This document shows positions 1-29,744 of a stretch of 64,000 nt of DNA, one piece after another. The translations under genes and the position numbers were made by a program. The first letter of the stretch is position 1. Each line of letters begins with the position of its first letter. Source of the DNA: a virus; the IMG/VR virus record IMGVR_UViG_3300027977_000008, positions 96,001-160,000 of that record. One strand, 5' to 3'. The notes under the pieces are model-generated. The model had not been told where the DNA came from, did not search any database, and saw only the letters and a program-made list of their open reading frames with translations.

Positions 1-194
1 CTGCTGCACTGTGTAGTGATAAAGTTCAAAATTTTTACTGTACAGATTTAATGTTGACAGAGCATCTAAATTATAGTATGCTTGTGGGTACAGATATTAA
101 AGTCTGTCAAGTGAAATTAAATGAATATCTTCAAGTTGGTGAGTGGACAAATGTGGAAGATCAACGCAAGTTTATTCTTGAATATGTTTTATGA
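1..194 (+). CDS. 3' end of an upstream gene of the glycosylation island (partial)
   Basis: Frame 3 is open from the window edge (AALCSDKVQNFYC...EDQRKFILEYVL*) and its TGA overlaps the ATG at 191. Confidence 0.6.
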   Translation, partial: AALCSDKVQNFYCTDLMLTEHLNYSMLVGTDIKVCQVKLNEYLQVGEWTNVEDQRKFILEYVL

Positions 195-7214: not shown

Positions 7215-7840
7215 AACTTATAGATCATATTGGTATTTTTGATAATGCTGTCCCAGATGATATGTGCGACAGCATTATTCTTGCATTTGATAATTGGACG
7301 GATAAAAAATTTACTCCTGAAGTTGGAGAATGGATTTCTTCTGGACAAGATCAATTTCAAGATAAAATTTTGAGTAGAAGCGATCATCAATTATATCTTG
7401 AATATGTTGATCTAAAAATGGCAATGCAACTCAATACATTTATTGGGCAGTGTTTTGAGCAGTATGCAAAACACTATCAGGGAATTGTTCAAGATAGTGA
7501 TCCTGTATCATCCTGGACAACTAAAGTTCAAAAAACTGTGGCGGGTGGTGGTTATCATAAGTGGCATTGTGAAAATGGTGTTTTTATGTATCGTGATCGT
7601 GTTTTGACTTGGATGGTATATCTGAATGACATTTCATCTGAGAATGGAGGTGCTACAGAATTTCTTTATCAGAAACTAGCACTGCATCCAAAGAAAGGAA
7701 CAGTAGTTCTTTGGCCAGCAGCATACACTCATATGCATCGCGGAGGATTTTTGACTGGTCCTATTGATAAATACATTGCAACAGGTTGGTTTCTGAGAGA
7801 ACCTGGAAACGTCAGTAGTAAAGTTCTTTCTGAATTGTGA
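7211..7840 (+). CDS. 2OG-Fe(II) oxygenase
   Basis: GGYHKWHCE, RVLTWMVYLND...GGATEF, THMHRG, KYIATGW. Confidence 0.85.
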   Translation: MKLIDHIGIFDNAVPDDMCDSIILAFDNWTDKKFTPEVGEWISSGQDQFQDKILSRSDHQLYLEYVDLKMAMQLNTFIGQCFEQYAKHYQGIVQDSDPVSSWTTKVQKTVAGGGYHKWHCENGVFMYRDRVLTWMVYLNDISSENGGATEFLYQKLALHPKKGTVVLWPAAYTHMHRGGFLTGPIDKYIATGWFLREPGNVSSKVLSEL

Positions 7841-9471: not shown

Positions 9472-11399
9472 TGATTATTTACACTTGCATTACAAATAAC
9501 TATTGTGAACTTCCTGAGATTGAAGATCTTGGGCATCAGTATATTTGTTTTCACGATGGCACTGTGGAACCAAAATCTCCTTGGGAACTAAGGGATATTA
9601 AATATCAACATAAGGATCCTGTTGTATTATCCAGGCATCCAAAAATCATGTTTCATGAATATTTTGATGACCCCTGTGTTTATGTTGATGCTTCTCGATT
9701 ACATTTAATTAATAATAAACAATTTTTTGATATTTCTAAAATAATTTTAGAAGAAGAACTGCTTGTGATGGATCATCCAGAACATCATAATTATTTTGAA
9801 GAATGTTTAGAATATTATTTAAGATCGTGGGTAAATGAAAGTGATATTTTTAAATTAACAAATTATTTGCGCAAAGAAAATTATGATTTCAATAATCATA
9901 ATACAATTTTTGCATGTATATTATGGAGAACTCCAAATGTAGAAACAATACAGTGGTCAAAACTTTGGTGGGATCTATACTTGGATTGTGGTCCTAGAGA
10001 TCAGTTGTCTGGTTCAGCATCTTTGAAATTATCTAATATAGATTATATTAGAGAGCATCCAGTTTCTATCATTTCTAAGTTTACTTATTATAGAGATTGG
10101 TGGAACGATCTCATAGGAAAATCTGGTGAGTATACTTTAAATAAAACTAATGAATGGAATTGGAAAAGTTTTATTGATGAATTATCAAAGATTTCTGGAC
10201 TAGATTGTAAATCCAAAATATCTTTGGAACATCTTAGATATCTGTCTGATCTTAAGAATGGTAATATTTTTAATCAAATTGTTAATTCGTTTGATTATAA
10301 AATTTATAATGACATAGAAAAATCTGAGGAACAGAAGGAAGCATATCGAATTCATTTAGAAGAATTAACTAAACAAAACGAGGTAAGGTTTACTGTATAT
10401 AGTTGCATTACCAACAATTATGATAACATACCTGAAGAAAATTATTATGATCCAAATGTGAGATACGTCATGTTCCATGATGGAACAATTGACACCACAA
10501 AGGGTCCGTGGGAATATATTGATGTTAGAAATTATTGTGATTTAGAATGTTCAAGAAGACTATCTGCTTTTCCAAAAATAAATCCTCATAGATTATTTGA
10601 ACCAGGTGAGCACACAGTGTGGATAGATGCTTGTTATATACAAACAAAAGAGTTTATAAAATTTTCAAAGACAGTTTTTCCTACAAAAGGAGTAACAACC
10701 TTAGAGCATTGTTATCGATTTAGTTATTATGATGAAATGCTTGAAGGATTTATGTGTGAATTTTTCTCTTACGATGATGGTATAGAATTGACAAAAAAAT
10801 TATCAGAAACAAACTATAATTTTAAAAATTACATTAGTCCTTGTTGTACTATAATTTGGAGAACTGTAAAAAATACAAAACAGTTTAGTGATTTTTGTAA
10901 TCTTTGGTGGAAATGGTCTTTGATTGGATCTAACAGAGACCAGCATTCATTTGATGCTGCAAGACAATTCACTGAAATACATATTACTCGTGTTCAGAAC
11001 AAACCACCATCGACAATTGCTGGGGGAATTGACTTAAAATTTGATTTAAAAAATAAAAATAGAAAAGGAAAACACCCTAAAAGAGGACAAAATTCTCAGT
11101 GGAAACGTATGGATGAATTTTTAAAAGAAATGCAATTATATGCAGGGTTAAGTCCGAGAATTTATGCAAAACATGAACATATAACAATGATGGATTGGAA
11201 TAATGTTTTTGAAGATGACATGGATAGACAAAAGTATACAATCCAATCTTCAACTATGAGAAATTTATCTCATCAACGCAGTTTGTGGGGGAGTACAAAA
11301 TCTTTAAATGATGCTATATGGTCTGATCATAAATCATCTCATATTAAACGCCTTGATGCTGATAGACTTAAAAAAATTAAAGCACTTCAAAAAAAATGA
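9471..11399 (+). CDS. Two-domain DUF616-like putative glycosyltransferase, paralog of the upstream gene
   Basis: Two copies of Y[TS]CITNNY...[YW][VI]DA...RDQ[LH]S. Confidence 0.7.
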   Translation: MIIYTCITNNYCELPEIEDLGHQYICFHDGTVEPKSPWELRDIKYQHKDPVVLSRHPKIMFHEYFDDPCVYVDASRLHLINNKQFFDISKIILEEELLVMDHPEHHNYFEECLEYYLRSWVNESDIFKLTNYLRKENYDFNNHNTIFACILWRTPNVETIQWSKLWWDLYLDCGPRDQLSGSASLKLSNIDYIREHPVSIISKFTYYRDWWNDLIGKSGEYTLNKTNEWNWKSFIDELSKISGLDCKSKISLEHLRYLSDLKNGNIFNQIVNSFDYKIYNDIEKSEEQKEAYRIHLEELTKQNEVRFTVYSCITNNYDNIPEENYYDPNVRYVMFHDGTIDTTKGPWEYIDVRNYCDLECSRRLSAFPKINPHRLFEPGEHTVWIDACYIQTKEFIKFSKTVFPTKGVTTLEHCYRFSYYDEMLEGFMCEFFSYDDGIELTKKLSETNYNFKNYISPCCTIIWRTVKNTKQFSDFCNLWWKWSLIGSNRDQHSFDAARQFTEIHITRVQNKPPSTIAGGIDLKFDLKNKNRKGKHPKRGQNSQWKRMDEFLKEMQLYAGLSPRIYAKHEHITMMDWNNVFEDDMDRQKYTIQSSTMRNLSHQRSLWGSTKSLNDAIWSDHKSSHIKRLDADRLKKIKALQKK

Positions 11400-16993: not shown

Positions 16994-17001
16994 TCCCAAA
17001 A

Positions 17002-17057
17002 CCACTTTCTGAACTGACACAGAGACCTCTTCCAAGGGGTCTTTTTTATGCTATAAT
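17002..17057 (+). promoter_or_regulatory. Phage early-type promoter motif overlapping a terminator hairpin
   Basis: CACTT-TCTG-AACTG-ACAC, hairpin GACCTCTT/AAGGGGTC plus T-run, TATAAT at 17052. Confidence 0.55.
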
Positions 17058-17069
17058 AAAGAAGTAAAT

Positions 17070-17276
17070 TTGAAAAGATCTCAAGTGTTAAAAAGCACTC
17101 AGTTCACTTACATTTTTCTTGGTGTCATTGCTATTCTTGGATGGAATATTTGGGCAATGCAAAAAGATGCTAAACTTATCAGAGCATATGATGATCAAAG
17201 AGCAAAAATAGAGTTCTGTAGTTCGCAGGCAGGATGGCATCCCGATTGTAATGATGATAAAATATACAAAAGATAA
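17070..17276 (+). CDS. Small predicted membrane protein
   Basis: Hydrophobic stretch YIFLGVIAILGWNIW; C-terminal FC....GWHPDC. Confidence 0.55.
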   Translation: MKRSQVLKSTQFTYIFLGVIAILGWNIWAMQKDAKLIRAYDDQRAKIEFCSSQAGWHPDCNDDKIYKR

Positions 17277-17322
17277 AAACTTTGATGTATTATTATAAAA
17301 AAGAAGGAAGTAATTATTTTTT

Positions 17323-17457
17323 ATGAAATATGTTTCTGTAATGCTGTTATTAGAAAATAAAAAAATTGAATGGATAGATATTCCTTGGGGTAAAAAATAC
17401 TTAGATGTGATTAGAAAATTTGGCACAATTATTATGACAGTTGTAAAATATCAATGA
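17323..17457 (+). CDS. Small hypothetical protein (not in ORF track)
   Basis: MKYVSVMLLLENKKIEWIDIPWGKKYLDVIRKFGTIIMTVVKYQ; stop overlaps the glutaredoxin ATG. Confidence 0.45.
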   Translation: MKYVSVMLLLENKKIEWIDIPWGKKYLDVIRKFGTIIMTVVKYQ

Positions 17458-17702
17458 AAGCAATAGTTTATAGCAAACTAGAATGTCCATATTGTGAAAA
17501 AGTAAAAACCATACTATTTCATTGTAATATTGAGTACATAGAATATGTGTATGGAAAAGATTTTATCAGAGATCAATTTTATGCAAAATTTGGAAATGGA
17601 TCTACTTTTCCCCAAGTAATATTGGATGATAAACATGTTGGAGGATGCACAGACACAGTAAAATACTTGAAAGAACAGAACCTCTTTCGAATTATACAAT
17701 AA
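17454..17702 (+). CDS. nrdC: Glutaredoxin
   Basis: CPYC active site, TFPQV, VGGCTD. Confidence 0.9.
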   Translation: MKAIVYSKLECPYCEKVKTILFHCNIEYIEYVYGKDFIRDQFYAKFGNGSTFPQVILDDKHVGGCTDTVKYLKEQNLFRIIQ

Positions 17703-17843
17703 ATAAAGATGTATAACTTCTACTTAGGAGTAAGAAACCAAAAATAAAAATCATAAGATTTGGAAAGTGGTTTCTTCCTTTTACAAATAAGGAATTTACC
17801 ATTTGCTTAGAGATAAGAGAACGGTAATCCCAGGAGAACAAAA

Positions 17844-18062
17844 ATGTTAGCAGCTATTATTGGTTTAGCAACTTTATGTTGCTTGTTGACATTAGGTTTT
17901 GGGGTTGTTATTGGATATTTGGTTAGACTATATTTACAAGATGTGACACCACAGTATTCACATCCTGAAATGTTTGACCCTAATGGCAACCCACTTCCAG
18001 ACGAAATTATTGCTTTCAGGTTTGAAGGTAACACAGAACACTTAGACGAATTTAATGACTAA
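17844..18062 (+). CDS. Small conserved cyanophage membrane protein
   Basis: N-terminal TM helix then HPEMFDPNGNPLPDEIIAFRFE; AGGAG SD upstream. Confidence 0.7.
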   Translation: MLAAIIGLATLCCLLTLGFGVVIGYLVRLYLQDVTPQYSHPEMFDPNGNPLPDEIIAFRFEGNTEHLDEFND

Positions 18063-18064
18063 TT

Positions 18065-18514
18065 ATGACAAAACTACCAAATAACCCTTTAGTTTCTGAA
18101 GTTTTTAAAGCTGCACACGGCGGTAAAACTATAGAACGAAAGATTGAAATCTTACAAGAACACAGAAGTAATCATATCAAATCACTTTTGATTTGGAACT
18201 TTGATAAAGGAATTGAAACTATTCTTCCACCTGGTGAAGTTCCTTATAGAAAGAATGAAGCACCTGCAGGAACACCAGGACATACAAGACTTGCCCATGA
18301 ATGGAAGGTGCTTTATAACTTTATCAAAGGTGGCAATGACAAGATCTCACATATGAAACGTGAGCAAATGTTTATTCAACTTCTTGAATCACTTCATGCT
18401 GATGAAGCAGAGATTGTTACTCTAGTAAAAGATAAGGAATTGCAGTCTAAGTATCGCATCACCAGGAGTGTTGTTGAGCAAGCATATCCAGAAATTGTTT
18501 GGCTAGATAAGTGA
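18065..18514 (+). CDS. Conserved T4-like phage hypothetical protein
   Basis: LIWNFD....LPPGEVPY..N, KREQMFIQLLESLH.DEAE. Confidence 0.75.
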   Translation: MTKLPNNPLVSEVFKAAHGGKTIERKIEILQEHRSNHIKSLLIWNFDKGIETILPPGEVPYRKNEAPAGTPGHTRLAHEWKVLYNFIKGGNDKISHMKREQMFIQLLESLHADEAEIVTLVKDKELQSKYRITRSVVEQAYPEIVWLDK

Positions 18515-19626
18515 TTGGAATTTTCATTGATATAACAGATCATTGCAATTCTAAATGTCCTCTTTGCACTAGACACAAAGTTTCTAAATTTACAAATGTT
18601 GTAGATTTAGTTCCTACAACATTTGTAAATAGATCATCAGTGTCTATTGAAACTTGGAAAACTTGGTTTTCCCCAAAAGTTCTTGAGAATATTTCTTTTA
18701 TAAACTTTCAAGGATCATTTGGGGAACCAAGTTTATGTGAAGATTTACTAAAAATAATTAAGTATTCAAGATTTATCAATAAAAATATTAATATTTTGAT
18801 GAGTACTAATGGAGGAACAAGGGATAAAAATTTTTGGAAGTCTCTTGGTAGACTTTTATTTTTTTCAACTCCCAACTCTAGAGTAATTTTTTCTATTGAT
18901 GGGTTAGACGATACACTAGCAGAATATAGAGTTGGGGTTGATTACAATAAAGTTATAGATAATGCCACTGCTTTCATTTCTGGTGGTGGTAATGCAGAAT
19001 GGAGGATGCTTGTCTTTAAGCATAATGAACATCAGATTGAAATCTGTAAACAAATATCCAAACAACTTGGATTTAAAAAGTTTTCCCACCAAACGGTGAA
19101 TGGGTTTTGGGATACTTCTGGCATGGGAAGTGGATCTTATAGTTACGTGTATAATGGTAAATTAAAAACTTTACAAGAAGCTTCTGACCCTAAGTATACA
19201 ACTAATCGAGGAAAGACAGAGAAAAATTCAGATATTCATTGTGACTTCAATCACAAAATAAATTCTATAGGAAATCTCAGAATAGATAGCATGGGGATAG
19301 TTCATGCTTGCTGCTATCATCAATCTAGACTAAGGTATTTTTATCCCGATTATTATATCAATAAAAATCCAGACGCAAAACCAGTTTATGATGAAAGTAT
19401 TGATAATCCTAATATGGGATCTGGTGTAAAATATTTGCATAAAATTTTTTACGATAGTATTATACCTTTGATAGAAGAGCAGGGTGGATTAAAAAGTATT
19501 AATTTAAATTACTTTTCTTTAGATGAAATTATTAACACTCCATTTTTTCAGCATAGTTTAATTTCATCGTGGAAAAATCCTGTACATATGTGCAGAGAAA
19601 ATTGTGGTATTTCTAGAATAAAATAA
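18511..19626 (+). CDS. Radical SAM protein with Cys-rich (SPASM/Twitch-like) C-terminus
   Basis: CNSKCPLC, GSFGEP, STNGG, FSIDGL, C...ACC...C...CG. Confidence 0.85.
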   Translation: MIGIFIDITDHCNSKCPLCTRHKVSKFTNVVDLVPTTFVNRSSVSIETWKTWFSPKVLENISFINFQGSFGEPSLCEDLLKIIKYSRFINKNINILMSTNGGTRDKNFWKSLGRLLFFSTPNSRVIFSIDGLDDTLAEYRVGVDYNKVIDNATAFISGGGNAEWRMLVFKHNEHQIEICKQISKQLGFKKFSHQTVNGFWDTSGMGSGSYSYVYNGKLKTLQEASDPKYTTNRGKTEKNSDIHCDFNHKINSIGNLRIDSMGIVHACCYHQSRLRYFYPDYYINKNPDAKPVYDESIDNPNMGSGVKYLHKIFYDSIIPLIEEQGGLKSINLNYFSLDEIINTPFFQHSLISSWKNPVHMCRENCGISRIK

Positions 19627-19640
19627 GTAACAAACTATAC
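19627..19640 (+). promoter_or_regulatory. Putative NtcA binding site
   Basis: GTA-ACAAACTA-TAC fits GTA-N8-TAC, 8 nt upstream of a -35 box. Confidence 0.55.
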
Positions 19641-19648
19641 AAAATTAC

Positions 19649-19677
19649 TTGCATAGATAGTGTATAGACGCTATAAT
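19649..19677 (+). promoter_or_regulatory. sigma70-type promoter
   Basis: TTGCAT-N17-TATAAT. Confidence 0.7.
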
Positions 19678-19684
19678 GTGTCTA

Positions 19685-19725
19685 CGTTCATTCGCAAATA
19701 GCGAACGCAAGTAAGTCGCGGAACG
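19685..19725 (+). ncRNA. glnA-type glutamine riboswitch aptamer 1
   Basis: P1 CGTTC/GAACG, P2 TTCGC-AAATA-GCGAA, junction CGCAAGTAAG. Confidence 0.7.
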
Positions 19726-19728
19726 GAG

Positions 19729-19894
19729 CGTTCATCTATGGAAGCAGTTCTTATTACTTGTTTGCAACTTGGACAATTAGTTGGCAGGGTTAATCAATCT
19801 TATGCTCCTGCCATAGTGAAGAGGTAAATTATAGAGGAACTCGTAAGAGTTTCGCCAAAGAAGTGCAGCATAAATGCAAACGGATGAAGGAACG
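19729..19894 (+). ncRNA. glnA-type aptamer 2, with an ORF inserted in place of P2
   Basis: Second CGTTCA at 19729 closes with ATGCAAAC-GGATGAAG-GAACG at 19874-19894. Confidence 0.55.
19738..19887 (+). pseudogene. Small ORF nested in aptamer 2, interrupted by an in-frame TAA at 19825
   Basis: MEAVLITCLQLGQLVGRVNQSYAPAIVKR*IIEELVRVSPKKCSINANG*. Confidence 0.5.
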
Positions 19895-19926
19895 GACCTA
19901 AAAATCCATTCATTCAGGAGAAACAA

Positions 19927-20058
19927 ATGACTACTGCAACGTATAGAGGAGTAAAGTATGACGTTGAAGAGCGTAAATTAAATGTTCTTCAACTTCTTAA
20001 AGATCAAATTGAAAAAGCAGAGCGCCTTAAGCAAGCACAAATGCAACTAAAAGGATGA
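19927..20058 (+). CDS. DUF4278-type small protein (not in ORF track)
   Basis: MTTATYRGVKYDVEERKLNVLQLLKDQIEKAERLKQAQMQLKG; YRGVKY motif; CAGGAG SD at 19915. Confidence 0.75.
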   Translation: MTTATYRGVKYDVEERKLNVLQLLKDQIEKAERLKQAQMQLKG

Positions 20059-20064
20059 TTGATT

Positions 20065-20100
20065 GGGAGAATTGACTTTCCCCTTTTTTATTGGTATAAT
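20065..20100 (+). terminator. Terminator overlapping the next sigma70 promoter
   Basis: GGGAGA...TTTCCC plus T-run; TTGACT(20072)-N17-TATAAT(20095). Confidence 0.6.
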
Positions 20101-20123
20101 TATTATACGGGAGGTACTATCTA

Positions 20124-20306
20124 ATGCGGTACAAGGAAACAATCCGCCTAGTCAAAAAAGCACTAGAGCAACCTTGGAAATATTCTGATGCTGAACTCTT
20201 GTACATGAGAAAGGCTTTAGATGATGCTACCTTAGGATTAGCAACAAAGAAATTTAACAAGAAAAAGAAAAAAGGATTTGGTTATCATGACAGTGCGATT
20301 GATTAG
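20124..20306 (+). CDS. Small conserved cyanophage protein upstream of thyX
   Basis: KKALEQPWKYSDAELLYMRK...KGFG; GGAGG SD. Confidence 0.6.
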   Translation: MRYKETIRLVKKALEQPWKYSDAELLYMRKALDDATLGLATKKFNKKKKKGFGYHDSAID

Positions 20307-20919
20307 TGCGACATCAGATGCAGAAAAAACAATGGCATATATTGCTAGAGTTTCTAATCCTGCAAATCAAGATAATGAAAACTATACAGGTTTGTTACGT
20401 TATTGTATCAAGCACAATCATTGGTCTGTGTTTGAGCACGCTTTTATGACTTTGGAAATTGAAACGAACCGTGGTATAGCGGCTCAAGTGCTCCGACATA
20501 GAAGTTTTACATTCCAAGAATTCTCACAACGTTATGCTGATACAAATCTTTTAGCAGAAGAAATACCATTACCAGAACTTCGTAGACAAGATACTAAAAA
20601 TCGTCAGAATTCTATTGATGATATTGATGAGGAGAAAGTATTCGTAATGAATAAGATGATTAGAGACCTGTTTAAGGACGCTCAAGACACGTACAACTTT
20701 CTTTTGGAACAAGGAGTAGCAAAAGAATGCGCTCGTTTTGTGCTTCCTTTGGCAGTAAAAACAAAAATTTATATGACTGGATCTGTCAGGTCATGGATTC
20801 ATTATATTAATCTTCGTTCTGCAAATGGAACTCAGAAGGAGCATATGGATATTGCAAATGAGTGTAAAAAAGTATTTGTGGAACAGTTTCCTGCGGTATC
20901 CGAATCACTTGAGTGGTGA
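20287..20919 (+). CDS. thyX: Flavin-dependent thymidylate synthase
   Basis: HWSVFEH and RHRSFTFQEFSQRY (RHRx7S) motifs. Confidence 0.95.
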   Translation: MTVRLISATSDAEKTMAYIARVSNPANQDNENYTGLLRYCIKHNHWSVFEHAFMTLEIETNRGIAAQVLRHRSFTFQEFSQRYADTNLLAEEIPLPELRRQDTKNRQNSIDDIDEEKVFVMNKMIRDLFKDAQDTYNFLLEQGVAKECARFVLPLAVKTKIYMTGSVRSWIHYINLRSANGTQKEHMDIANECKKVFVEQFPAVSESLEW

Positions 20920-22505
20920 TGAAAGTATTAGGAATAAACTTAGCAAAGAATGGATCTATTGCAATAGTCAATGATGGTAATCTAGAATTTTATCTTGAAG
21001 AGGAAAGAGTTACTAGGAAAAAACGTGACGTTGGTGCATATGCACTATGTGAAAAGTTTGTTGATAGCACTGTTGATGTTGCAGTTTATTCTGATTGTTT
21101 TACGCGATATTCATTTAAAAACAATCTAGAAAGAGTTACTGCTAGAAAAAAACTAGAACAACTTTTACATTCTAGGGGTGTAAAAGAAGTCTTAGATTTT
21201 TCTGATCATCATCATGAGTGTCATGCAGCATCTGCTTTTTATGGATCTGGATTTGATGATGCCGTTTGTGTTGTGATGGATGGGAAAGGATCTGTAATCC
21301 GAAAAAATGGGACTTTATTTTGTGAAACAGAAAGCATTTATAACTATGTAAATGGAAAATTTGTTTCACTATTCAAACACTATTCTTGTTTTTATAATCG
21401 TGCATTATGTGAAAAAATTGACAAACCTTTTTGGGACGGCAACAACTTATTCAGCAATCGAGTAAGTATTGGGCAAGCATTTAGATGTGTTTCTGGATAT
21501 TGTGGATTTGATGAAATTGAAGCTGGTAAAACCATGGGATTATCTTCTTATGGTTCTGGTCCAGTCAATCTTTTCAACGAAGAATACGGACATAGTTTTT
21601 GTAGTAAAGATATCTATCCTAGAGATAATACTGGATGGACAAAATATTATGGTGAAGAAACTACAAATGAAAATTTAGCATACAATCTACAGAAATCTGC
21701 TGAAAAACATGCAATCTATATGATCAAAAAGGCAGTTGAACTTTCTGGAAAAAAGAATGTTGTAGTTTCTGGTGGGTTTTTTTTGAATTGTGTTTCCAAC
21801 TATAATGTGTTAAAATCTTTAGACATAAATTTATATGCTGATCCGCTGTCATATGATGGAGGACATGCATTTGGATCTGCAATGCTAGTTTCTGATAAAA
21901 AGACAACTATGAAAACACTATACTTAGGACCAACTTATGATCTTTCTCACATTGAAGGAAAGGATACTTCGTATAGTGAAGTTGCACGACTAATTTCTGA
22001 GAAGAATATTGTTGCAATGTTTCAAGGAAGATCTGAAGCTGGTCCTAGAGCATTGGGGAACAGATCTATTCTCTATGATCCTAGAGATCCAAATGGAAAA
22101 GATCACGTCAACACAATTAAAAAACGTGAGACATTTAGACCTTTTGCGGGAACAGTTCTAAATGAATATGTTCATGAGTGGTTTGACATGGCAGGTATGG
22201 AAGAAAGTCCTTTTATGATGTATGCTGTTGATGCACATCTTGATGCTTGGGAACATATTCCTGCAATTCTTCATGTAGATAAAACCTGCAGAATTCAAAC
22301 GCTAACTAAGGAACAGAATGAACATTACTATAATTTGATTGAAGCATTTTATGAAAAGACAAGAGTTCCTATTTTATTCAATACATCTTTCAATCTTGCA
22401 GGCGAACCACTTGTAGAGACACCAGAAGATGCATTGAAAACTTTTTATAATAGTGATATCAAGTATCTTTATTTTCCCGAAGTTCAGAAACTTATAATCA
22501 AATGA
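20919..22505 (+). CDS. NodU/CmcH/TobZ-family O-carbamoyltransferase, full length
   Basis: EEERVTRKK, HHECHA, DGKG, GKTMGLSSYG, SGGFFLNC, GRSEAGPRALGNRSIL, RETFRPFA, HVDKTCRIQT, NTSFNLAGEPLV. Confidence 0.93.
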   Translation: MKVLGINLAKNGSIAIVNDGNLEFYLEEERVTRKKRDVGAYALCEKFVDSTVDVAVYSDCFTRYSFKNNLERVTARKKLEQLLHSRGVKEVLDFSDHHHECHAASAFYGSGFDDAVCVVMDGKGSVIRKNGTLFCETESIYNYVNGKFVSLFKHYSCFYNRALCEKIDKPFWDGNNLFSNRVSIGQAFRCVSGYCGFDEIEAGKTMGLSSYGSGPVNLFNEEYGHSFCSKDIYPRDNTGWTKYYGEETTNENLAYNLQKSAEKHAIYMIKKAVELSGKKNVVVSGGFFLNCVSNYNVLKSLDINLYADPLSYDGGHAFGSAMLVSDKKTTMKTLYLGPTYDLSHIEGKDTSYSEVARLISEKNIVAMFQGRSEAGPRALGNRSILYDPRDPNGKDHVNTIKKRETFRPFAGTVLNEYVHEWFDMAGMEESPFMMYAVDAHLDAWEHIPAILHVDKTCRIQTLTKEQNEHYYNLIEAFYEKTRVPILFNTSFNLAGEPLVETPEDALKTFYNSDIKYLYFPEVQKLIIK

Positions 22506-23353
22506 ATATCTTAGGAATAAATCTTTCCAATAATGGATCTATTTGCTTACTCAAAGATGGGCAAGTAGATTTTTATTTGGAAGCAGAAAGAATTACAAGA
22601 AAAAAACTTGATTATATTGTCAAAGATCTTGTAGATTATGTATCTGATGTTGATGTGATTGCAACAGTTGATGCTCATTGGGTTGGAGCTGAAAAAAATA
22701 TGCTTAGCGCAAGAGATATCGCACGGTTCAGACGTGCATTTCCCAATGCTAAACACGTTGATTACAAGAAGTCTCATCATCTAGCACATGCTGCAGGAGC
22801 ATTTTATAGTTCTAGATTTGATGAGGCAGTTTGTATTGTAGTTGATAGTAATGGATCTAGTATCGCAGATAAACTAGAAATTGAAACCATCTTTCATGCA
22901 AAGACTGACAACAGATTTCAATGGAAAACTATACATAAAAAATATTGGGATCCACCTGAAAATGGTATAGGAAAACTATTTGAATATGTGTCTAAGTTTT
23001 GTGGATTTGGTCGAGATGATGCTGGTAAAGTTATGGGATTGTCATCTTACGGATTTAATAAAGTGGATCTAAGTAATCTTGCACTTAAATCAAAAGAAGA
23101 CGCTGCATATACAATTCAAATTCTTTGGGAAGAACGTGCATTAGAACTTGCTAATCTTGCAATCAAAAAAACAAAGTGTAAGAACCTTGTATTATCTGGT
23201 GGATGTTTCTTGAACTGTGTTGTTAATTACAAACTTCGCAAACAATTACCAAAAGATGTTAAAATGTATGTTGAACCAGTTGCACATGATGGTGGAACTT
23301 CTATAGGAGCTGCTTACCTTGCCTATTACAATCCCAAAATTAAAAATTCTTGA
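22502..23353 (+). CDS. Carbamoyltransferase N-terminal (Kae1-like) domain only
   Basis: EAERITRKK, HHLAHA, GKVMGLSSYG, SGGCFLNC, DGGTSIGAA; lacks the C-terminal GPRALG domain. Confidence 0.88.
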   Translation: MNILGINLSNNGSICLLKDGQVDFYLEAERITRKKLDYIVKDLVDYVSDVDVIATVDAHWVGAEKNMLSARDIARFRRAFPNAKHVDYKKSHHLAHAAGAFYSSRFDEAVCIVVDSNGSSIADKLEIETIFHAKTDNRFQWKTIHKKYWDPPENGIGKLFEYVSKFCGFGRDDAGKVMGLSSYGFNKVDLSNLALKSKEDAAYTIQILWEERALELANLAIKKTKCKNLVLSGGCFLNCVVNYKLRKQLPKDVKMYVEPVAHDGGTSIGAAYLAYYNPKIKNS

Positions 23354-24125
23354 TATCAGTGCAACGATTGGATGCAATCTAAGTTGTAAAGGATGTAATC
23401 ATTTCAGTAATTATTTTGCCCCCGGTAGCAAATTAGATACAGATAAACTCATTCAAGATATCCACACCATCCTGCCCAGGATAGACGTAGAACGTGTCTC
23501 AGTCATTGGCGGGGAACCATTGCTCAATGTACGCTGCCGAGACATCTTACACGCTTGTCTAGAGCATACAGAGACAGTCTATCTGTATACAAATGGCATA
23601 CTTCTTAATGAAGAAAACCGAGAATGGATTGAAGAAGACTTAGAAAAATATCCTGGCATGTCTTTACGTGTTAGTATTCATACTCCAGATGTTATTGATA
23701 ACATCAACAAGGTAAAGAGTAGCAAAGTTTTTGTTACAGAACACCATGATGGCAAAGATCGATGGTTCAGTTCTATCAAACAATCTAACGGTAAAGTATA
23801 CCCTTATGTTCATAATAACATAAAACAAAGTTATGAGTTGTGCTCTTGTCCCAATACACAACTATTCGATGGTAAACTTTGGAAGTGTCCTAATGCAGCA
23901 TTTTTAAAAGAACTTCTTTATGTTACTGAACAATTAGAAGAAGATTTTTGGAAACCTTTTATTGGTGATGGATTACCAGTTGACTGTAGTGATGAGGATC
24001 TGGTAAAATTATGTGATAACTCTAGTAAACCTGAACAAATATGTAACATGTGTACTGCTAGACCATTGAAGTTTAGCGCAGCATTACAAACCAATAATCA
24101 TAAAAAGATTATTACAACACAATAA
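23319..24125 (+). CDS. Radical SAM protein
   Basis: CNLSCKGC, GGEPLL, YTNG, C.C...GKLWKCP, ICNMC. Confidence 0.88.
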   Translation: MPITIPKLKILDISATIGCNLSCKGCNHFSNYFAPGSKLDTDKLIQDIHTILPRIDVERVSVIGGEPLLNVRCRDILHACLEHTETVYLYTNGILLNEENREWIEEDLEKYPGMSLRVSIHTPDVIDNINKVKSSKVFVTEHHDGKDRWFSSIKQSNGKVYPYVHNNIKQSYELCSCPNTQLFDGKLWKCPNAAFLKELLYVTEQLEEDFWKPFIGDGLPVDCSDEDLVKLCDNSSKPEQICNMCTARPLKFSAALQTNNHKKIITTQ

Positions 24126-24147
24126 ATATTTACGAATTGAAATAATT

Positions 24148-24399
24148 ATGCCCATATATCCTGTAAGACATTTAGAAACTGGGGAAACACAGGAACTTGC
24201 TATGTCTATCTCTAATTACGATCAGTGGAGAAAAGACAATCCCGAATGGGATAAAGATTGGTCTGCTGGTGTCGCTTCTGCTGTGAGTGCTGTAGGTGAC
24301 GTTTATAGTAGAACTGATGGTGGATGGAATGAAATCCTTCACAAAGTCAGCAAAATGCCTGGTTCAAAAGTAAAACCTCAAAAAACAACGCACTTCTAA
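24148..24399 (+). CDS. Conserved cyanophage small protein upstream of phoH
   Basis: MPIYPV...TGE...QWRKDNPEWDKDWS...GWNEILHKVSKMPGS. Confidence 0.7.
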   Translation: MPIYPVRHLETGETQELAMSISNYDQWRKDNPEWDKDWSAGVASAVSAVGDVYSRTDGGWNEILHKVSKMPGSKVKPQKTTHF

Positions 24400-24400
24400 A

Positions 24401-25156
24401 ATGACCTCAAGGAAAAAAAGAACTCCTTCTCAAGTCGGCGCTGGCATGTCTGCAAAACAAATATCCAGAAAAAAACCTTTCAATATCGATATGGTGGTTG
24501 ATATTGAACCACTTACAGAAAATCAAACAAAAGTTTTTGATTCATATAAAGAAGATAAAAACTTATTTGTTTATGGTGCAGCAGGTACGGGTAAAACATT
24601 TATTACTCTTTACCTTGCATTGAAAGAAGTCCTTAATCCTTTGACTCCATACAATCGAGTTGTAATTGTACGATCATTAGTTGCAACTCGTGAAATTGGT
24701 TTCCTTCCTGGAGATCATGAAGATAAATCTTCTCTTTACCAAATTCCTTATAAGAATATGGTAAAATATATGTTTGAGTTACCCACTGACAATGACTTTG
24801 AAATGTTATGGGGTAATCTCAAGACGCAAGAAAGCATAAAGTTTTGGTCAACATCTTTCATTCGTGGTACTACTCTTGACGATTGTATTGTAATTGTTGA
24901 CGAATGCCAGAACTTGAATTTTCACGAATTAGATAGTATAATTACTAGAGTTGGTGAGAACTGCAAGATTCACTTCTGTGGTGATGCTTCGCAGTCAGAT
25001 CTTGTCAAAACAAATGAGCGACATGGAATTCTTGATTTCATGAAGATCATTCACGCAATGCCCGAATTTGATTCTTTTGAATTTGGACCTCAGGATATTG
25101 TTAGATCTGGTCTTGTCAAGAGTTACATTCTAAACAAAATTAATTTGGGTCTCTGA
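24401..25156 (+). CDS. phoH: PhoH-like ATPase
   Basis: GAAGTGKT, REIGFLPGD, FIRGTT, VDECQN, GDASQSD, DIVRS. Confidence 0.95.
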   Translation: MTSRKKRTPSQVGAGMSAKQISRKKPFNIDMVVDIEPLTENQTKVFDSYKEDKNLFVYGAAGTGKTFITLYLALKEVLNPLTPYNRVVIVRSLVATREIGFLPGDHEDKSSLYQIPYKNMVKYMFELPTDNDFEMLWGNLKTQESIKFWSTSFIRGTTLDDCIVIVDECQNLNFHELDSIITRVGENCKIHFCGDASQSDLVKTNERHGILDFMKIIHAMPEFDSFEFGPQDIVRSGLVKSYILNKINLGL

Positions 25157-25836
25157 TGTTTCAACATGTTGATATTGAGTTTCCCGCACTTAAGCGGGAA
25201 ACAATTGATGGAGTTCGATATTATGATGTAGAAGGTAGACCGATGGTATCTATTACCTCGGTCACCTCGCATTACAACAAAGAAATTTTTGTCAAATGGC
25301 GAGCGAAGATTGGTGAAGAAGAAGCAAACCGTATTTCTAAACGCTCCACAAATCGTGGTACAAAAGTACACACTTGTATAGAAAACTTCCTTTGGAATAA
25401 GAACGTTCTAGATACAGATCCTTTGCCAATGATGTTATTTACCCAGGCAAAAAAAATTCTAGGAAATATAGATAACATTTACGCTCTTGAGAAATCTTTA
25501 TACAGTAAACATCTGGGTGTTGCTGGTACTGTAGATTGTATTGCTGAGTACACGGGAGAAAGTGGTGTTCCAGAACTTGCAATCATTGACTTCAAGACTG
25601 CAGAAAAACCAAAACCAAGGGCATGGATCGAAAATTATTTTGTACAAGCAGCAGCGTATGCTTGCATGTTTTACGAAATGACTAACATCCCAGTAAAGAA
25701 ACTTGTCATTTTGATGACTTGCGAAAACGGGGAAGTTGAGGTTTACGAAGAGTATGATAAAAAACAATACATAGAAAAACTAGTTAAATACATTCAAAAA
25801 TTTGTGGAAGACAAACTAAATGACTACAAAAACTGA
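25156..25836 (+). CDS. PD-(D/E)XK exonuclease (Cas4/RecB-like)
   Basis: RGTKVH, AGTVDCIAEY, IIDFKT, YFVQAAAY. Confidence 0.85.
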   Translation: MFQHVDIEFPALKRETIDGVRYYDVEGRPMVSITSVTSHYNKEIFVKWRAKIGEEEANRISKRSTNRGTKVHTCIENFLWNKNVLDTDPLPMMLFTQAKKILGNIDNIYALEKSLYSKHLGVAGTVDCIAEYTGESGVPELAIIDFKTAEKPKPRAWIENYFVQAAAYACMFYEMTNIPVKKLVILMTCENGEVEVYEEYDKKQYIEKLVKYIQKFVEDKLNDYKN

Positions 25837-26083
25837 AATCAAATCTGTCATAAAAAGTAAATTTTTATGTCAAGATAAGTTTACTAATGACATCGAAAAC
25901 ATTGTAAAAGATAATTCTGACATGAATTATATTGAAGCAATTTGTTTTTATTGTGAACAAAATACGATTGAACTTGAATCGATTATAAAACTTATTTCCA
26001 AACCACTAAAAGAAAAACTCAAGTGTAATGCAACTAATCTAAATTATTTAAATAGAACTTCTAATGCGAAATTTTTTATCTGA
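25820..26083 (+). CDS. gp33: Late transcription co-activator gp33
   Basis: YIEAI..YCE....E.E...KLISKPLKEKLK..A..LNYL; synteny. Confidence 0.85.
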   Translation: MTTKTEIKSVIKSKFLCQDKFTNDIENIVKDNSDMNYIEAICFYCEQNTIELESIIKLISKPLKEKLKCNATNLNYLNRTSNAKFFI

Positions 26084-27114
26084 TGGACAAAGAACTTAAA
26101 GCAAAAGTTGATTATGTAAGAGGTTTAAAAGGATTTTGGGTAGATAATTTTAAACAGATTACCGTTGAGCAAATTGCAGAATTAGAAAAACAAAGACCCA
26201 CTACAAGACTTCTTAGTATTCATACAATAAACGGTTGCAATCTTTCTTGTAGAGGTTGTAATCATAATAGTAGTTTGCTTTCAGGAAAAAGTACTGTAAA
26301 TATTGATCAACTGATAGAAGATATTGAAAATATTCTTCCTAAAATTTATGTTTGGAGCCATGTTAGTATTATTGGTGGAGAACCATTATTAGAACCGAGG
26401 ACAAAGGAAGTTACAAGAATTGTAAGAGAACTTTGTTACGGTGAACGTGGATCACAACCATGTAATGTAAAGTTATTCAGCAACGGATCTAGACTTCTTC
26501 AGGAAAAGGAATGGATTGCTGATGAGATGTTGAAAGGAGTTATTTTTAGACTTACTTTTCATCGTCCACCATATACACAAGCAGGTAAAAAAGATTGGGA
26601 GAATGGGTATGAGTTCACTCATTATCTAATTGAACGTGGGGTTGATATTGACAATAAGTTTGAGTTGAGTGAAGCGTATTTACAACCAGACAACACTCCA
26701 AGGGTATGGTTTGATCTAGTAAAGTATGAATTCAATGAAGATGGATCAGTAAAATATTACCCACATGAAGATGGTAATCCATCTTCTAGTTTTAAACATT
26801 GTACTTGTGCTAATTCACAATTATATAATGGACATCTATGGAAATGTCCGATGGTAGCATATCTAAGAGAATCTTTAGCAGCAACTGATCAGTTAGAAGA
26901 TCCTGAATGGCAAAAATATCTTGGATATAAACCAACTAATATCAATGACACTGAGGAAGCACTTAGAAGTTCATTCAAAGAAGTTGTAGAACCTGGTTGG
27001 ATCTGTAACATGTGCCCAAGCAGACCAAAAATTGAATATGCTGCTAAAATACAATTGAAAGGACAGAAGAGGACAGTTGAAATGTTCGATCCTAAAAATT
27101 ATGAACCCGTTTGA
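26083..27114 (+). CDS. Radical SAM protein, paralog of 23319..24125
   Basis: CNLSCRGCNH, GGEPLL, FSNG, C.C.NSQLYNGHLWKCP, ICNMC. Confidence 0.88.
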   Translation: MDKELKAKVDYVRGLKGFWVDNFKQITVEQIAELEKQRPTTRLLSIHTINGCNLSCRGCNHNSSLLSGKSTVNIDQLIEDIENILPKIYVWSHVSIIGGEPLLEPRTKEVTRIVRELCYGERGSQPCNVKLFSNGSRLLQEKEWIADEMLKGVIFRLTFHRPPYTQAGKKDWENGYEFTHYLIERGVDIDNKFELSEAYLQPDNTPRVWFDLVKYEFNEDGSVKYYPHEDGNPSSSFKHCTCANSQLYNGHLWKCPMVAYLRESLAATDQLEDPEWQKYLGYKPTNINDTEEALRSSFKEVVEPGWICNMCPSRPKIEYAAKIQLKGQKRTVEMFDPKNYEPV

Positions 27115-27703
27115 TACTTATAAACAATATCTTGCATTCAAACAACATTTTACTAGAAAAAATTATGATTACTTTAGATATGGTGGTAAGTCTAGAGCAA
27201 GTTTGAATTCTTTTTACAAAAGAAAAGACAGATACTTCTTTGAAAAAATGTCGAGGAAGTATAATGATGATGAGATCAAGTTATTTTTTATTGCTAACTT
27301 CGTAGCGTGTGACAATCCAAATTCTTTATGGATTGGTGAGATTATTCGATCTGGTGAAAGTGTTTATTCTTCTTGGCAAGGAAGACAGCAAAGTTTGTTT
27401 TATCAGTTCAAGCAACACACAGAAGATTTGTTGTCTGAATACAACCTAGAAGAACTATTTGATGCTTCAAGGCAACATCCACCAGTTTTAAAAAATTTCT
27501 TGAGTGGGAATATTAGCATCGAAACCATTACAATATACGACAAAATATTCCTGTTTGGCAACAATCTTGATAAGAAATTGACTGACCCAATTTGGGAAGC
27601 GATTAGTTTAAAACTAAAAAAGTATGCACCGTTTCTAAATATTGATGCCGTCAAATACAAACAATATTTGCGGGAACGACTATTGGAGAAGACGCATGGG
27701 TAA
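27101..27703 (+). CDS. gp59: Helicase loader gp59
   Basis: YLAFKQHF....YDYFRYGGK.RAS..SFYKRKDRYFFEK; start MNPFD at 27101. Confidence 0.88.
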   Translation: MNPFDTYKQYLAFKQHFTRKNYDYFRYGGKSRASLNSFYKRKDRYFFEKMSRKYNDDEIKLFFIANFVACDNPNSLWIGEIIRSGESVYSSWQGRQQSLFYQFKQHTEDLLSEYNLEELFDASRQHPPVLKNFLSGNISIETITIYDKIFLFGNNLDKKLTDPIWEAISLKLKKYAPFLNIDAVKYKQYLRERLLEKTHG

Positions 27704-28028
27704 GTTTTTTCAGTCTGAGATTATCCGTGAAGAGATGGAAGACATCTTTAGAATTCAAAAAGAATTATATGAAGTTATTATTCAGTTTAGTTCGTTTAGT
27801 GATAAAGAAAAGAATGAACACATTGAAAAACTAAAGACACTTTTAGATAAACAAGAAATCATGTGGACAAGACTTTCATTGTCCGATGATCGGGAAGCAT
27901 TAGAAATGAAAGAAAAAATCAAGATAACATCAGCAGCAATGGGGTTTAAAGATGTTGATATGTCAATCATCTTCAATAACATGAGAAGAACCTTGGAAGG
28001 TTTACAAAAACGCCTTGACACACCCTAA
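27696..28028 (+). CDS. DUF1825-type conserved cyanobacterial/cyanophage protein
   Basis: FFQSEII...KQEIMWTRLSLSDD.EA; usual position between gp59 and gp32. Confidence 0.7.
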   Translation: MGKFFQSEIIREEMEDIFRIQKELYEVIIQFSSFSDKEKNEHIEKLKTLLDKQEIMWTRLSLSDDREALEMKEKIKITSAAMGFKDVDMSIIFNNMRRTLEGLQKRLDTP

Positions 28029-28043
28029 ATGGTATGTTATAAT
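28015..28043 (+). promoter_or_regulatory. Consensus sigma70 promoter of gp32
   Basis: TTGACA-N17-TATAAT. Confidence 0.85.
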
Positions 28044-28087
28044 ATAACAGGTAATCAATCCACCCAATCTAAAAATACAAAAATCTT

Positions 28088-29002
28088 ATGTCTTTTGCAG
28101 ATCTAAAAAAACAATCTCGCCTTGGCAGTTTGACTTCTAAACTGACAACAGAGATTGAAAAAATGAATAAGAGCACCACTGGTGGTGCTGATGATCGTGT
28201 ATGGAAACCTGAAGTAGATAAAGCAGGCAACGGTTATGCAGTAATTCGTTTTCTACCTGCACCACAAGGTGAAGAATTGCCTTGGGGAAAAGTGTGGTCA
28301 CATGCTTTTCAAGGTCCAGGAGGTTGGTATATTGAGAACAGTCTGACCACGCTTGGTGGTAAAGATCCTGTTTCGGAGTACAATCGTATTCTTTGGAACA
28401 GTGGTAGTGAAGTAGATAAAGAACAAGCACGTAAGCAGAAGCGTAAACTATCTTACATTAGCAACATCTATGTTGTGAAGGATCCTGCTAATCCCCAGAA
28501 CGAAGGCAAAGTTTTTCTATTCAAGTTTGGTAAGAAAATCTTTGATAAGATTACTGCTGCCATGCAACCTGAGTATGAAGATGAGCAAACGATTGATCCG
28601 TTTGACTTCTGGCAAGGTGCAAATTTCAAGATGAAAATCAAGAACGTTGCTAGTTATCGTAACTACGACAGTTCTGAGTTTGCAAAATCTGAACCACTTC
28701 TGGATGATGATGATGCACTTGAAGCAATTTGGAAAAAACAGTATTCTCTTGAAGAGTTTACTCGTCCTGATCAGTTCAAGTCCTACGAAGAACTTGAAAA
28801 GCGTATGAATATGGTTCTAAATCCTAACGCTTCTAGTCGTCGTGTTGATCCTGATACGTTCGATGAGGAAGAGCAAGTTGTGATGAAGTCTCGCCAACAA
28901 ATCAAGGAAGAAGAGCGTGTTGTTAAGTCATCTCCTGCTCCTGTAGCAGCAGATGATGATGACGATACACTGTCTTACTTCCAGCGACTTGCTGAAGAGT
29001 GA
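28088..29002 (+). CDS. gp32: Single-stranded DNA-binding protein gp32
   Basis: GNGYAVIRFLP, HAFQGPGGWYIEN, GKKIFDKI, NYDSSEF, acidic tail. Confidence 0.95.
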   Translation: MSFADLKKQSRLGSLTSKLTTEIEKMNKSTTGGADDRVWKPEVDKAGNGYAVIRFLPAPQGEELPWGKVWSHAFQGPGGWYIENSLTTLGGKDPVSEYNRILWNSGSEVDKEQARKQKRKLSYISNIYVVKDPANPQNEGKVFLFKFGKKIFDKITAAMQPEYEDEQTIDPFDFWQGANFKMKIKNVASYRNYDSSEFAKSEPLLDDDDALEAIWKKQYSLEEFTRPDQFKSYEELEKRMNMVLNPNASSRRVDPDTFDEEEQVVMKSRQQIKEEERVVKSSPAPVAADDDDDTLSYFQRLAEE

Positions 29003-29078
29003 TTTCAAAATCAATTTTTGTTTTCAAAAAAGTCAATTAAAAAATTCTGGGTAAAAATTTCAAAATATGTTTTTGGAG

Positions 29079-29744
29079 TTATCTTGAGGATAAAATCCTT
29101 AAGTTAGCTCCTTTTTTTGTACGTTTATCAATATATTGAGAACTATCGGTATAAGTCATGATTTCACGCATATCATCAATTATGGTTTGGATGTAATTTT
29201 GTCTCAAAACGTAAATTGTGCGTTTTTCGTCGTTTTTCAAAACTTCGTAATCATAGTTACTGACTGAAGTTAGTATATTTGCCCCAGAAAGCACTTTATA
29301 CGTGCCAAAGTTAGAATACTTAAATTGGAAGTTTGCATCAACAAATAATCCTGCCTGTAAAAGCAAATTTCCTTCACTATTACGAACTTCTTTGGTTTCA
29401 TAATGATGAATTTCCTGTAAAAGTTCAGATCCATACTTATTCATCAAATAATTGTTTAGATCTGTTTGTGACATTGGCCATTCTTCTCTAACATTGATAA
29501 TATTGTTAGAAATTAGGATAATCCAGTCTAATTGTGGACTATTGTATAGTATTCCCGCAACATTATCTGGACGATTATCACCAACAATGGAGTATTTGTC
29601 AAATACTATAGCATTTTGAAAAAAATCATCTCTAATTTTAGCACGTTTGAAAAGATTTTTTACACGGACATAATCGTAACTGGAATTACGATTGTCTGAA
29701 AACGATGGTAATAATAGATCTGGAAATAAGTCAAAATATGCCAT
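29079..29744 (-). CDS. gp53: Baseplate wedge subunit gp53
   Basis: VKNLFKR, RPDNVA..LY....LDWIIL, EWP, IHHYET. Confidence 0.85.
   Translation of the reverse strand: MAYFDLFPDLLLPSFSDNRNSSYDYVRVKNLFKRAKIRDDFFQNAIVFDKYSIVGDNRPDNVAGILYNSPQLDWIILISNNIINVREEWPMSQTDLNNYLMNKYGSELLQEIHHYETKEVRNSEGNLLLQAGLFVDANFQFKYSNFGTYKVLSGANILTSVSNYDYEVLKNDEKRTIYVLRQNYIQTIIDDMREIMTYTDSSQYIDKRTKKGANLRILSSR

Follow-up and report, generated by a model that had tools for sequence, protein, structure and literature searches.

Two carbamoyltransferase-radical SAM enzyme pairs in a T4-like cyanomyovirus and their possible role in sugar tailoring

T4-like cyanophages rank among the ocean's most abundant viruses, and their carbamoyltransferases have figured in lists of "auxiliary metabolic genes" since 2010, to our knowledge with no substrate assigned. 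IMG/VR record IMGVR_UViG_3300027977_000008, a contig of 171,943 bp (34.7% G+C; completeness, 82%) from an uncultured ocean virus identified as a T4-like cyanomyovirus by its gene order and nearest relatives, carries two such genes and three genes for radical S-adenosylmethionine (SAM) enzymes amid its nucleotide and replication genes. They lie within bases 96,001 to 160,000 of the record, a 64,000-nucleotide (nt) stretch referred to here as the window. Do these five genes act together, and on what? A preliminary description of the window had treated them as one dispersed system, preferably for hypermodification of nucleotides or DNA and alternatively for the tailoring of glycans or virion proteins. 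The main new result of this analysis is that two carbamoyltransferase domains are each paired with a radical SAM enzyme of their own.

Carbamoyltransferase domains and their radical SAM partners

The list of open reading frames (ORFs) and matches in Pfam, NCBIfam, and PHROGs place the five genes, namely, rSAM-A, CarbT-full, CarbT-N, rSAM-B, and rSAM-C, where the preliminary description had them (Table 1). Each overlaps the gene upstream, by 4, 7, 4, 35, and 1 nt, respectively, and the coordinates of rSAM-C put it between gp33 and gp59, both as originally noted. The three radical SAM genes are the only Radical_SAM matches in the entire record; three points placed at random in 172 kb would share an 8.6-kb span with a probability of ~0.007, a value that ignores insertion hot spots.

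CarbT-full scores 71.7 bits for Carbam_trans_N and 207.2 bits for Carbam_trans_C (Pfam cut-offs of 24 and 27 bits) and matches phrog_1601 with an E value of 2e-141. Its Kae1-like and YrdC-like domains are called N' and C in the following, and CarbT-N, which matches the N domain alone (89 bits), is called N. CarbT-N is a paralog of residues 1 to 325 of CarbT-full (35% identity; E value of 7e-51). The solved relatives of CarbT-full (E values of 1e-38 to 1e-45) are O-carbamoyltransferases throughout, comprising TobZ, NovN, GdmN, and 7xb6. The HHECH/HHLAH, MDGKG/VDSNG, and YDGGHA/HDGGTS motifs of the Kae1-like domains align to the matching segments of TobZ, and these contain the HxxxH/D/D residues of its metal site. 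Because CarbT-N aligns on TobZ residues 19 to 205 and 281 to 353 and retains the HHxxH, VDxxG, and DGG motifs, it looks like an active transferase subunit and not a remnant. By analogy with these relatives, the predicted activity is O-carbamoylation of a hydroxyl from carbamoyl phosphate and ATP. Readings as a t6A enzyme (TsaD/Kae1, TIGR00329) or as HypF (TIGR00143) were rejected, with scores of 16 to 29 bits against cut-offs of 208 and 466. The NodU equivalog NF041651 (cut-off of 1000 bits) does not apply either, as CarbT-full reaches 137 bits and CarbT-N 33.

With rSAM-B, rSAM-A, and rSAM-C as queries, about 190 related loci were gathered from IMG/VR, the window proteins were mapped onto them, and co-occurrence was counted in 106 nonredundant loci. 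The unit conserved in ~100 related contigs is a C piece of ~200 amino acids (aa) with CarbT-N directly behind it; one close relative (L184) lacks both CarbT-N and rSAM-B. The C domain was found in all relatives with the region covered (53/53). In three of them (L003, L047, and L188), it forms a stand-alone ORF of 198 to 200 aa starting at the methionine that corresponds to residue 333 (MKTLYLGP) of the fusion in the window. N' is optional. The window and the clade nearest to it have N' fused to C, L038 and L047 encode it in a separate overlapping ORF, and in L044, L053, and L071, inserted genes part it from C; it is missing from L001, L003, L016, L029, L030, and L070. Rather than a truncated extra copy, CarbT-N is the conserved partner of the C domain across relatives.

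This organization shares with the TobZ/NodU/NovN/GdmN type (PF02543 plus PF16861; PDB 3VEN, 9S2T, 7VYJ, and 7XB6) the same Kae1-like and YrdC-like domains and the metal-site motifs. In contrast to that type, the conserved phage form is split, has a reversed gene order (C before N), and may include a second Kae1-like domain upstream of C. Given the fusion of this second domain to C, both transferases appear to be supplied by a single C domain.

Each of the two transferase domains has a radical SAM counterpart. rSAM-B is always located directly behind CarbT-N (83/83 loci), while four more distant loci have CarbT-N followed by a different 209-aa ORF, without rSAM-B. The sites of N' and rSAM-C are 3.5 kb apart, with conserved genes between them; both were present in 19 loci and neither in 9, with N' alone in 2 and rSAM-C alone in none. 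In a maximum-likelihood tree of the phoH-nuclease DNA that lies between the sites, the state of N' changes at least six times, and rSAM-C follows it in 5.7 of 6 independent contrasts and never goes the opposite way (sign test, P = 0.031). One relative (L003) is 99% identical to the window between both sites yet lacks N', rSAM-C, and rSAM-A. This indicates that the N' and rSAM-C differences are separate indels and not one recombined block. rSAM-C thus appears to be the partner of N', and the adjacency of N and rSAM-B together with the co-inheritance of N' and rSAM-C defines two transferase-radical SAM pairs around one C domain. The divergence between N and N' (35% identity) resembles that between rSAM-B and rSAM-C (33%), a similarity consistent with duplication of a whole pair. 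rSAM-B occurs without rSAM-C in 16 loci, and rSAM-C occurs without rSAM-B in 5. The dispersed five-gene system is therefore retained in part: the co-occurrence check across phages gives a paired distribution for N, rSAM-B, N' (within CarbT-full), and rSAM-C and a patchy, independent one for rSAM-A.

The usual cyanomyovirus order had been said to lack such genes, which is only partly right, as the cultured phage S-RIM44 has the split carbamoyltransferase in the same slot between thyX and phoH (thyX-C-N-phrog_385-phoH), with no radical SAM gene. A megablast search of the region against phage records gave matches at the phoH level only. With rSAM-B and rSAM-C, tblastn against 50,697 phage records retrieved only AG-345-D19, derived from a single amplified genome, and a distant match in S-SCSM2R. 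The single-cell-derived AG-345-D19 is the only phage record with this cassette in the searched collection, which contained no cultured example. No description of the split carbamoyltransferase, of its pairing with SpeY-like enzymes, or of a dispersed co-varying pair was found in the searchable literature.

The 209-aa ORF that replaces rSAM-B (L188, positions 2424 to 3053; also in L186, L189, and L192) has no Pfam match, and its N terminus, GCSITYGDE, contains a candidate SGNH-hydrolase-like motif. The slot between gp33 and gp59 also varies. In one of the two loci with N' only (L011), it holds a different 397-aa radical SAM protein and a 246-aa protein without assignment (positions 5823 to 7683), and a homolog of the latter occupies this slot in L016. 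Three loci (L068, L069, and L075) have a tandem pair of rSAM-C-like genes there, 61% and 42 to 45% identical to rSAM-C, and L027 has one divergent copy (45%).

Table 1. Features of the window and of the flanking record (positions refer to the window unless marked as record positions)
Feature	Position	Strand	Remarks
Third carbamoyltransferase group	record 4230-7861		Outside window, near left end of record; just upstream of giant structural genes
Sugar cluster, part upstream of window	record 90656-96194		5.3 kb upstream; three NDP (nucleoside diphosphate)-sugar dehydratase/epimerases and DegT aminotransferase
Sugar cluster, part in window	191-11399	+	GT17, RXYLT1-like, DUF5672, GT10, GT2, GT11, GT7-like, GT25, 2-oxoglutarate (2OG)-Fe oxygenase, TOD1/MUCI70-like
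DUF6433	18065-18514	+	
rSAM-A	18511-19626	+	SPASM/twitch-type radical SAM enzyme; Pfam Radical_SAM
Glutamine-II riboswitch-like element	19682-19732		In gap between rSAM-A and thyX
43-aa ORF	19927-20058	+	In 650-bp gap after rSAM-A
Terminator-like hairpin and T run	20065-20082	+	Overlaps promoter
Sigma-70-type promoter	20072-20100	+	TTGACT-17-TATAAT; 11/12 consensus matches
60-aa ORF (orf60)		+	
thyX	20278-20919	+	
CarbT-full	20913-22505	+	N' fused in frame to C
N' (CarbT-full residues 1-325)	20913-21887	+	Kae1-like (ASKHA) transferase domain; Pfam Carbam_trans_N
C (CarbT-full residues 333-530)	21909-22505	+	YrdC-like domain; Pfam Carbam_trans_C (207 bits)
CarbT-N (N)	22502-23353	+	Stand-alone Kae1-like subunit; Pfam Carbam_trans_N only; ATGA overlap on C gene
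rSAM-B	23319-24125	+	SpeY-like twitch radical SAM enzyme (predicted model and sequence); CX3CX2C and four invariant C-terminal Cys
phrog_385 protein		+	83 aa
phoH		+	
PD-(D/E)XK nuclease		+	
gp33	25820-26083	+	
rSAM-C	26083-27114	+	rSAM-B paralog in slot between gp33 and gp59
gp59	27077-27703	+	
gp32		+	

Fold, family, and glycan context of rSAM-B and rSAM-C

The claim that rSAM-B and rSAM-C are paralogs with a shared set of motifs holds: their alignment has an E value of 4e-48, and every motif quoted was found. In an alignment of 61 sequences, the CX3CX2C motif, GGEP, and four C-terminal cysteines are invariant (C19, C23, C26, C175, C190, C242, and C245). The AlphaFold2 model of rSAM-B has a predicted local distance difference test (pLDDT) score of 93, and its best structural match is SpeY (7wzv), with a VIA Z score of 21.9 and a root mean square deviation of 2.6 Å over 234 of 268 residues. 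The next match is BtrN, with a Z score of 12.6, and other SPASM/twitch enzymes plateau near 11. The sequence profile gives the same order, with SpeY matched over the whole length at an E value of 8.7e-31 and everything else at ~1e-12. On the predicted fold, the cluster motif, the auxiliary cysteines, and this similarity, rSAM-B and rSAM-C are SpeY-like twitch radical SAM enzymes. Against NF033640 (N_Twi_rSAM; cut-off of 170 bits), rSAM-A, rSAM-B, and rSAM-C score 47.3, 31.5, and 32 bits, all below the cut-off.

SpeY is a twitch radical SAM dehydrogenase of spectinomycin biosynthesis. By analogy, rSAM-B and rSAM-C would dehydrogenate a secondary alcohol of a sugar. They resemble SpeY (7WZV/7WZX/7X0B) in size, fold, the CX3CX2C motif, and the C-terminal set of twitch cysteines. 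Unlike SpeY, which belongs to an aminocyclitol pathway, they are phage encoded and paired with a carbamoyltransferase subunit, and their relatives are linked to glycosyltransferases (GTs).

This link is seen in cellular and phage relatives alike. A profile search of 1.84 billion representatives retrieved 2,436 full-length relatives of rSAM-B and rSAM-C, counted as cluster representatives with E values of ≤1e-30. Among the best 150 of these, the 33 longest carry a GT2 domain in 17 cases, GT8 in 3, and GT17 in 1, along with two further GT24-profile matches and one DUF6716 (putative glycosyltransferase); at least 21 of the 33 are glycosyltransferase fusions. For cellular neighborhoods, one scan of genome contigs returned five loci. 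The Campylobacter novaezeelandiae homolog lies in a polysaccharide locus amid GT2, TupA-like ATP-grasp, aminotransferase, HAD, GT4, RmlC, and FkbM genes, and the homolog in a Gastranaerophilales metagenome-assembled genome is fused to GT2 and surrounded by three more GT2 genes and a GT4 gene. In the cultured cyanomyovirus S-SCSM2R, a distant homolog sits inside a run of glycosyltransferase genes, beside a DegT-like aminotransferase and an amidinotransferase. Campylobacter homologs also have N-terminal runs of 7-residue repeats (e.g., DLNNTKI) that vary in number between species.

A two-branch sugar pathway and its rivals

The phage itself has a sugar cluster of ~17 kb, which is directly upstream of psbA and psbD and extends from the flanking record into the window (Table 1). 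Both long relatives that cover that region have the same DegT and GT2 genes upstream of the cassette, and the cluster is the likely source of the substrate. Comparable gene sets, with sugar-nucleotide enzymes, many glycosyltransferases, 2OG oxygenases, and radical SAM cassettes, are known from S-SCSM2R (PMC12801897) and from the host recognition cluster of pelagimyophages (PMC7029224), although these reports list the genes without analysis.

In the pathway that we propose, the C domain would act as in TobZ and convert carbamoyl phosphate and ATP to carbamoyl-AMP. This intermediate could then be used by the two Kae1-like transferases, N as a separate polypeptide, presumably in a physical complex with C, and N' as the domain fused to C in this phage. 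Each transferase would be tied to its own radical SAM enzyme, as adjacency and translational overlap suggest for N and rSAM-B and co-inheritance over 3.5 kb suggests for N' and rSAM-C. If the SpeY analogy holds, hydrogen abstraction by each radical SAM enzyme at a hydroxyl-bearing carbon of a sugar would lead to its oxidation (or epimerization), and the partner transferase would O-carbamoylate a hydroxyl on that same sugar. The substrate may be a sugar residue or nucleotide-sugar of a glycan made by the 17-kb cluster, and the tailored glycan could be destined for the virion or for the envelope of the infected cell. We give about an even chance to this reading, in which four of the five parts make up the two branches of a system for sugar or glycan tailoring and DNA bases are not the likely substrate. 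The glycan option, one of the two substrates named in the preliminary description, fits the glycosyltransferase fusions, the polysaccharide loci, the SpeY match, and the sugar cluster of the phage. A more specific version, a bifurcated machine in which one carbamoyl-AMP domain feeds two transferases, each with its own radical SAM oxidase or epimerase, to yield a doubly carbamoylated, radical-remodeled sugar on the virion or the surface of the infected cell, is tentative and in our judgment rather doubtful; in this version, selection would keep one enzyme pair together despite the 3.5 kb between its genes.

Several points weigh against sugar tailoring. rSAM-B is just 18% identical to SpeY and 22 to 28% identical to its glycan-linked cellular homologs, and with identities this low, its specificity could differ. 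The cassette lies ~9 kb outside the sugar cluster, with psbA, psbD, and other genes intervening. Albomycin biosynthesis uses twitch radical SAM enzymes and a carbamoyltransferase on a nucleoside, so a nucleoside or nucleotide-sugar substrate is also conceivable here. Absence-side counts are few, because the radical SAM genes themselves served as queries for the loci, and the co-variation test has only six contrasts.

Hypermodification of DNA or nucleotides, the reading first preferred, would have the carbamoyltransferases act on a modified base and the radical SAM enzymes build or remodel its side chain. It draws on a phage TobZ-family enzyme that makes 5-carbamoyloxymethylcytosine (PMC8670742) and on the location of the genes in the nucleotide/replication block, co-oriented and overlapping with thyX. 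The modifying enzymes found by MetaGPA, however, co-occur with PF00303 genes, whereas the "unmodified" ones adjoin glycosyltransferases (PMC8670742). The 5-hydroxymethylcytosine carbamoyltransferase of that study, a phage-borne TobZ-family enzyme like the ones considered here and the one family member known to act on DNA, travels with genes for a ThyA-type hydroxymethylase and a dCMP deaminase; here, neither accompanies the cassette, and the neighbor is an ordinary ThyX. In fact, the lack of a hydroxymethylase first noted for the window extends to the whole 171,943-bp record (82% complete), in which no PF00303 match was found. The ThyX protein is ~73% identical to those of S-RIM44 and other phages without the radical SAM genes, and is thus an ortholog common to phages lacking the cassette. 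The context of the rSAM-B/rSAM-C family is glycan related throughout. As for position, the slots between thyX and C and between gp33 and gp59 hold purM, speD, a denV-like gene, DUF4385, and unassigned ORFs in relatives, and with such unrelated cargo in the same slots, the replication-block location is uninformative. We find no support for DNA hypermodification and consider it improbable.

The same hot spots also speak for a different view, in which the five genes share no pathway and are independent cargo in two insertion sites. The patchiness of rSAM-A (L017 versus L018) and the loci with rSAM-B or rSAM-C alone point in this direction. The invariant adjacency of N and rSAM-B argues otherwise, since the sole close relative without either one (L184) is without both and only four distant loci have N alone. 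So do the co-variation of N' and rSAM-C in six independent contrasts across 3.5 kb of conserved genes and the similar divergence within the two paralogous pairs, which fits duplication of a pair. We regard a lack of any common pathway as unlikely. It is quite unlikely, too, that the enzymes make or tailor a diffusible small molecule, aminoglycoside or nucleoside like, and not a surface glycan. The nearest characterized relatives do tailor antibiotics (SpeY for spectinomycin, BtrN, TobZ, NovN, and GdmN), and the S-SCSM2R homolog was named an "antibiotic synthesis" gene by its authors, without analysis (PMC12801897). Yet no scaffold genes (cyclitol synthase, polyketide synthase, or nonribosomal peptide synthetase) were found among the genes scanned, and most of the relatives adjoin, or are fused to, glycosyltransferases of the polymer type (GT2, GT8, GT4, and GT25). 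Finally, maturation of a protein or of a ribosomally synthesized and posttranslationally modified peptide (RiPP) by the radical SAM enzymes could be read from the SuiB, SkfB, and anSME folds among the matches, chiefly for rSAM-A, and from the database annotation of the S-SCSM2R homolog as a "maturase." For rSAM-B, however, such folds score ~10 Z units below SpeY, and on these grounds, the peptide-maturase reading of rSAM-B and rSAM-C was rejected. Neither protein has a RiPP-recognition domain, and no conserved precursor-like small ORF accompanies the cassette, the 83-aa ORF downstream being phrog_385, which is also present in phages without radical SAM genes. Peptide or protein maturation is, in our estimate, highly improbable.

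In testable form, the analysis describes the cassette as a split enzyme whose two arms would each have their own acceptor and SpeY-like radical SAM enzyme, most likely acting on sugars. If sugar tailoring is correct, the phage would produce a carbamoylated glycan with a possible influence on superinfection exclusion, on the stability of the virion, or on how the host is recognized. The radical SAM family, known from a single antibiotic pathway, would widen to the 2,436 cluster representatives, many of the longer ones fused to glycosyltransferases. A carbamoyltransferase gene beside thyX should be taken with caution as a signature of DNA modification.

rSAM-A and other features of the locus

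rSAM-A is unrelated to rSAM-B and rSAM-C at the BLAST level. In 25 sequences, its invariant cysteines are C12, C16, and C19 and, toward the C terminus, C244, C267, C268, C361, and C365, the pattern of a SPASM/twitch-type enzyme. The model (pLDDT, 83) matches several folds with tied Z scores of 17 to 19, namely, SuiB (18.8), anSME (18.2), BlsE (17.9), and MoaA (17.3), and also SkfB. IMG/VR holds 344 relatives in other phages, mostly ~30% identical; their usual neighbors are unassigned ORFs and one to three more radical SAM genes, and carbamoyltransferases are absent from these neighborhoods. The only tblastn matches in phage records were in Campylobacter phages CP220 and F379 (27% identity). 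Radical SAM cassettes have been noted, unstudied, in variable regions of marine T4-like phages (PMC7029224). Among the distant relatives (L089 to L162), the flanking radical SAM families are 325, 361, and 464 aa long, a 199-aa protein without assignment occurs nearby in 51 loci, and several loci have a thyX-like gene a few kilobases away on the opposite strand; several neighbors have no match in Pfam.

Of the 32 cassette loci that could be evaluated, only 6 have rSAM-A, and two near-identical contigs (L017 and L018) differ in it. A terminator-like hairpin and a near-consensus promoter stand between rSAM-A and thyX, which would put rSAM-A in a separate transcription unit; judged from these consensus matches, positions 20065 to 20100 are likely the start of an orf60-thyX-CarbT-CarbT-N-rSAM-B unit that cuts off rSAM-A. 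The inclusion of rSAM-A in the system is thus not borne out, given its patchy distribution, its likely separate transcription unit, and a phage-wide family that is found without carbamoyltransferases. It is probably separate, independently mobile cargo that stands outside the pathway proposed for the others.

The gap between rSAM-A and thyX (19627 to 20100) contains a glutamine-II riboswitch-like element that scores 25 bits, under the Rfam gathering score of 33; at the gathering threshold, Rfam matched nothing within 17000 to 29500. Between this element and the hairpin is the 43-aa ORF, which is kept in relatives. On the other side of thyX, cargo accumulates in the slot between thyX, N', and C, a hot spot within a block that is otherwise syntenic; purM, speD, a pyrimidine-dimer-glycosylase-like gene, and DUF4385 are among its contents in different relatives (L044, L053, L071, L081, and L082). 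The record also encodes a third, shorter carbamoyltransferase (463 aa; N and C domains). A sulfotransferase-like gene lies 1.3 kb away on the other strand, with DUF6071-like and HNH endonuclease genes between the two.

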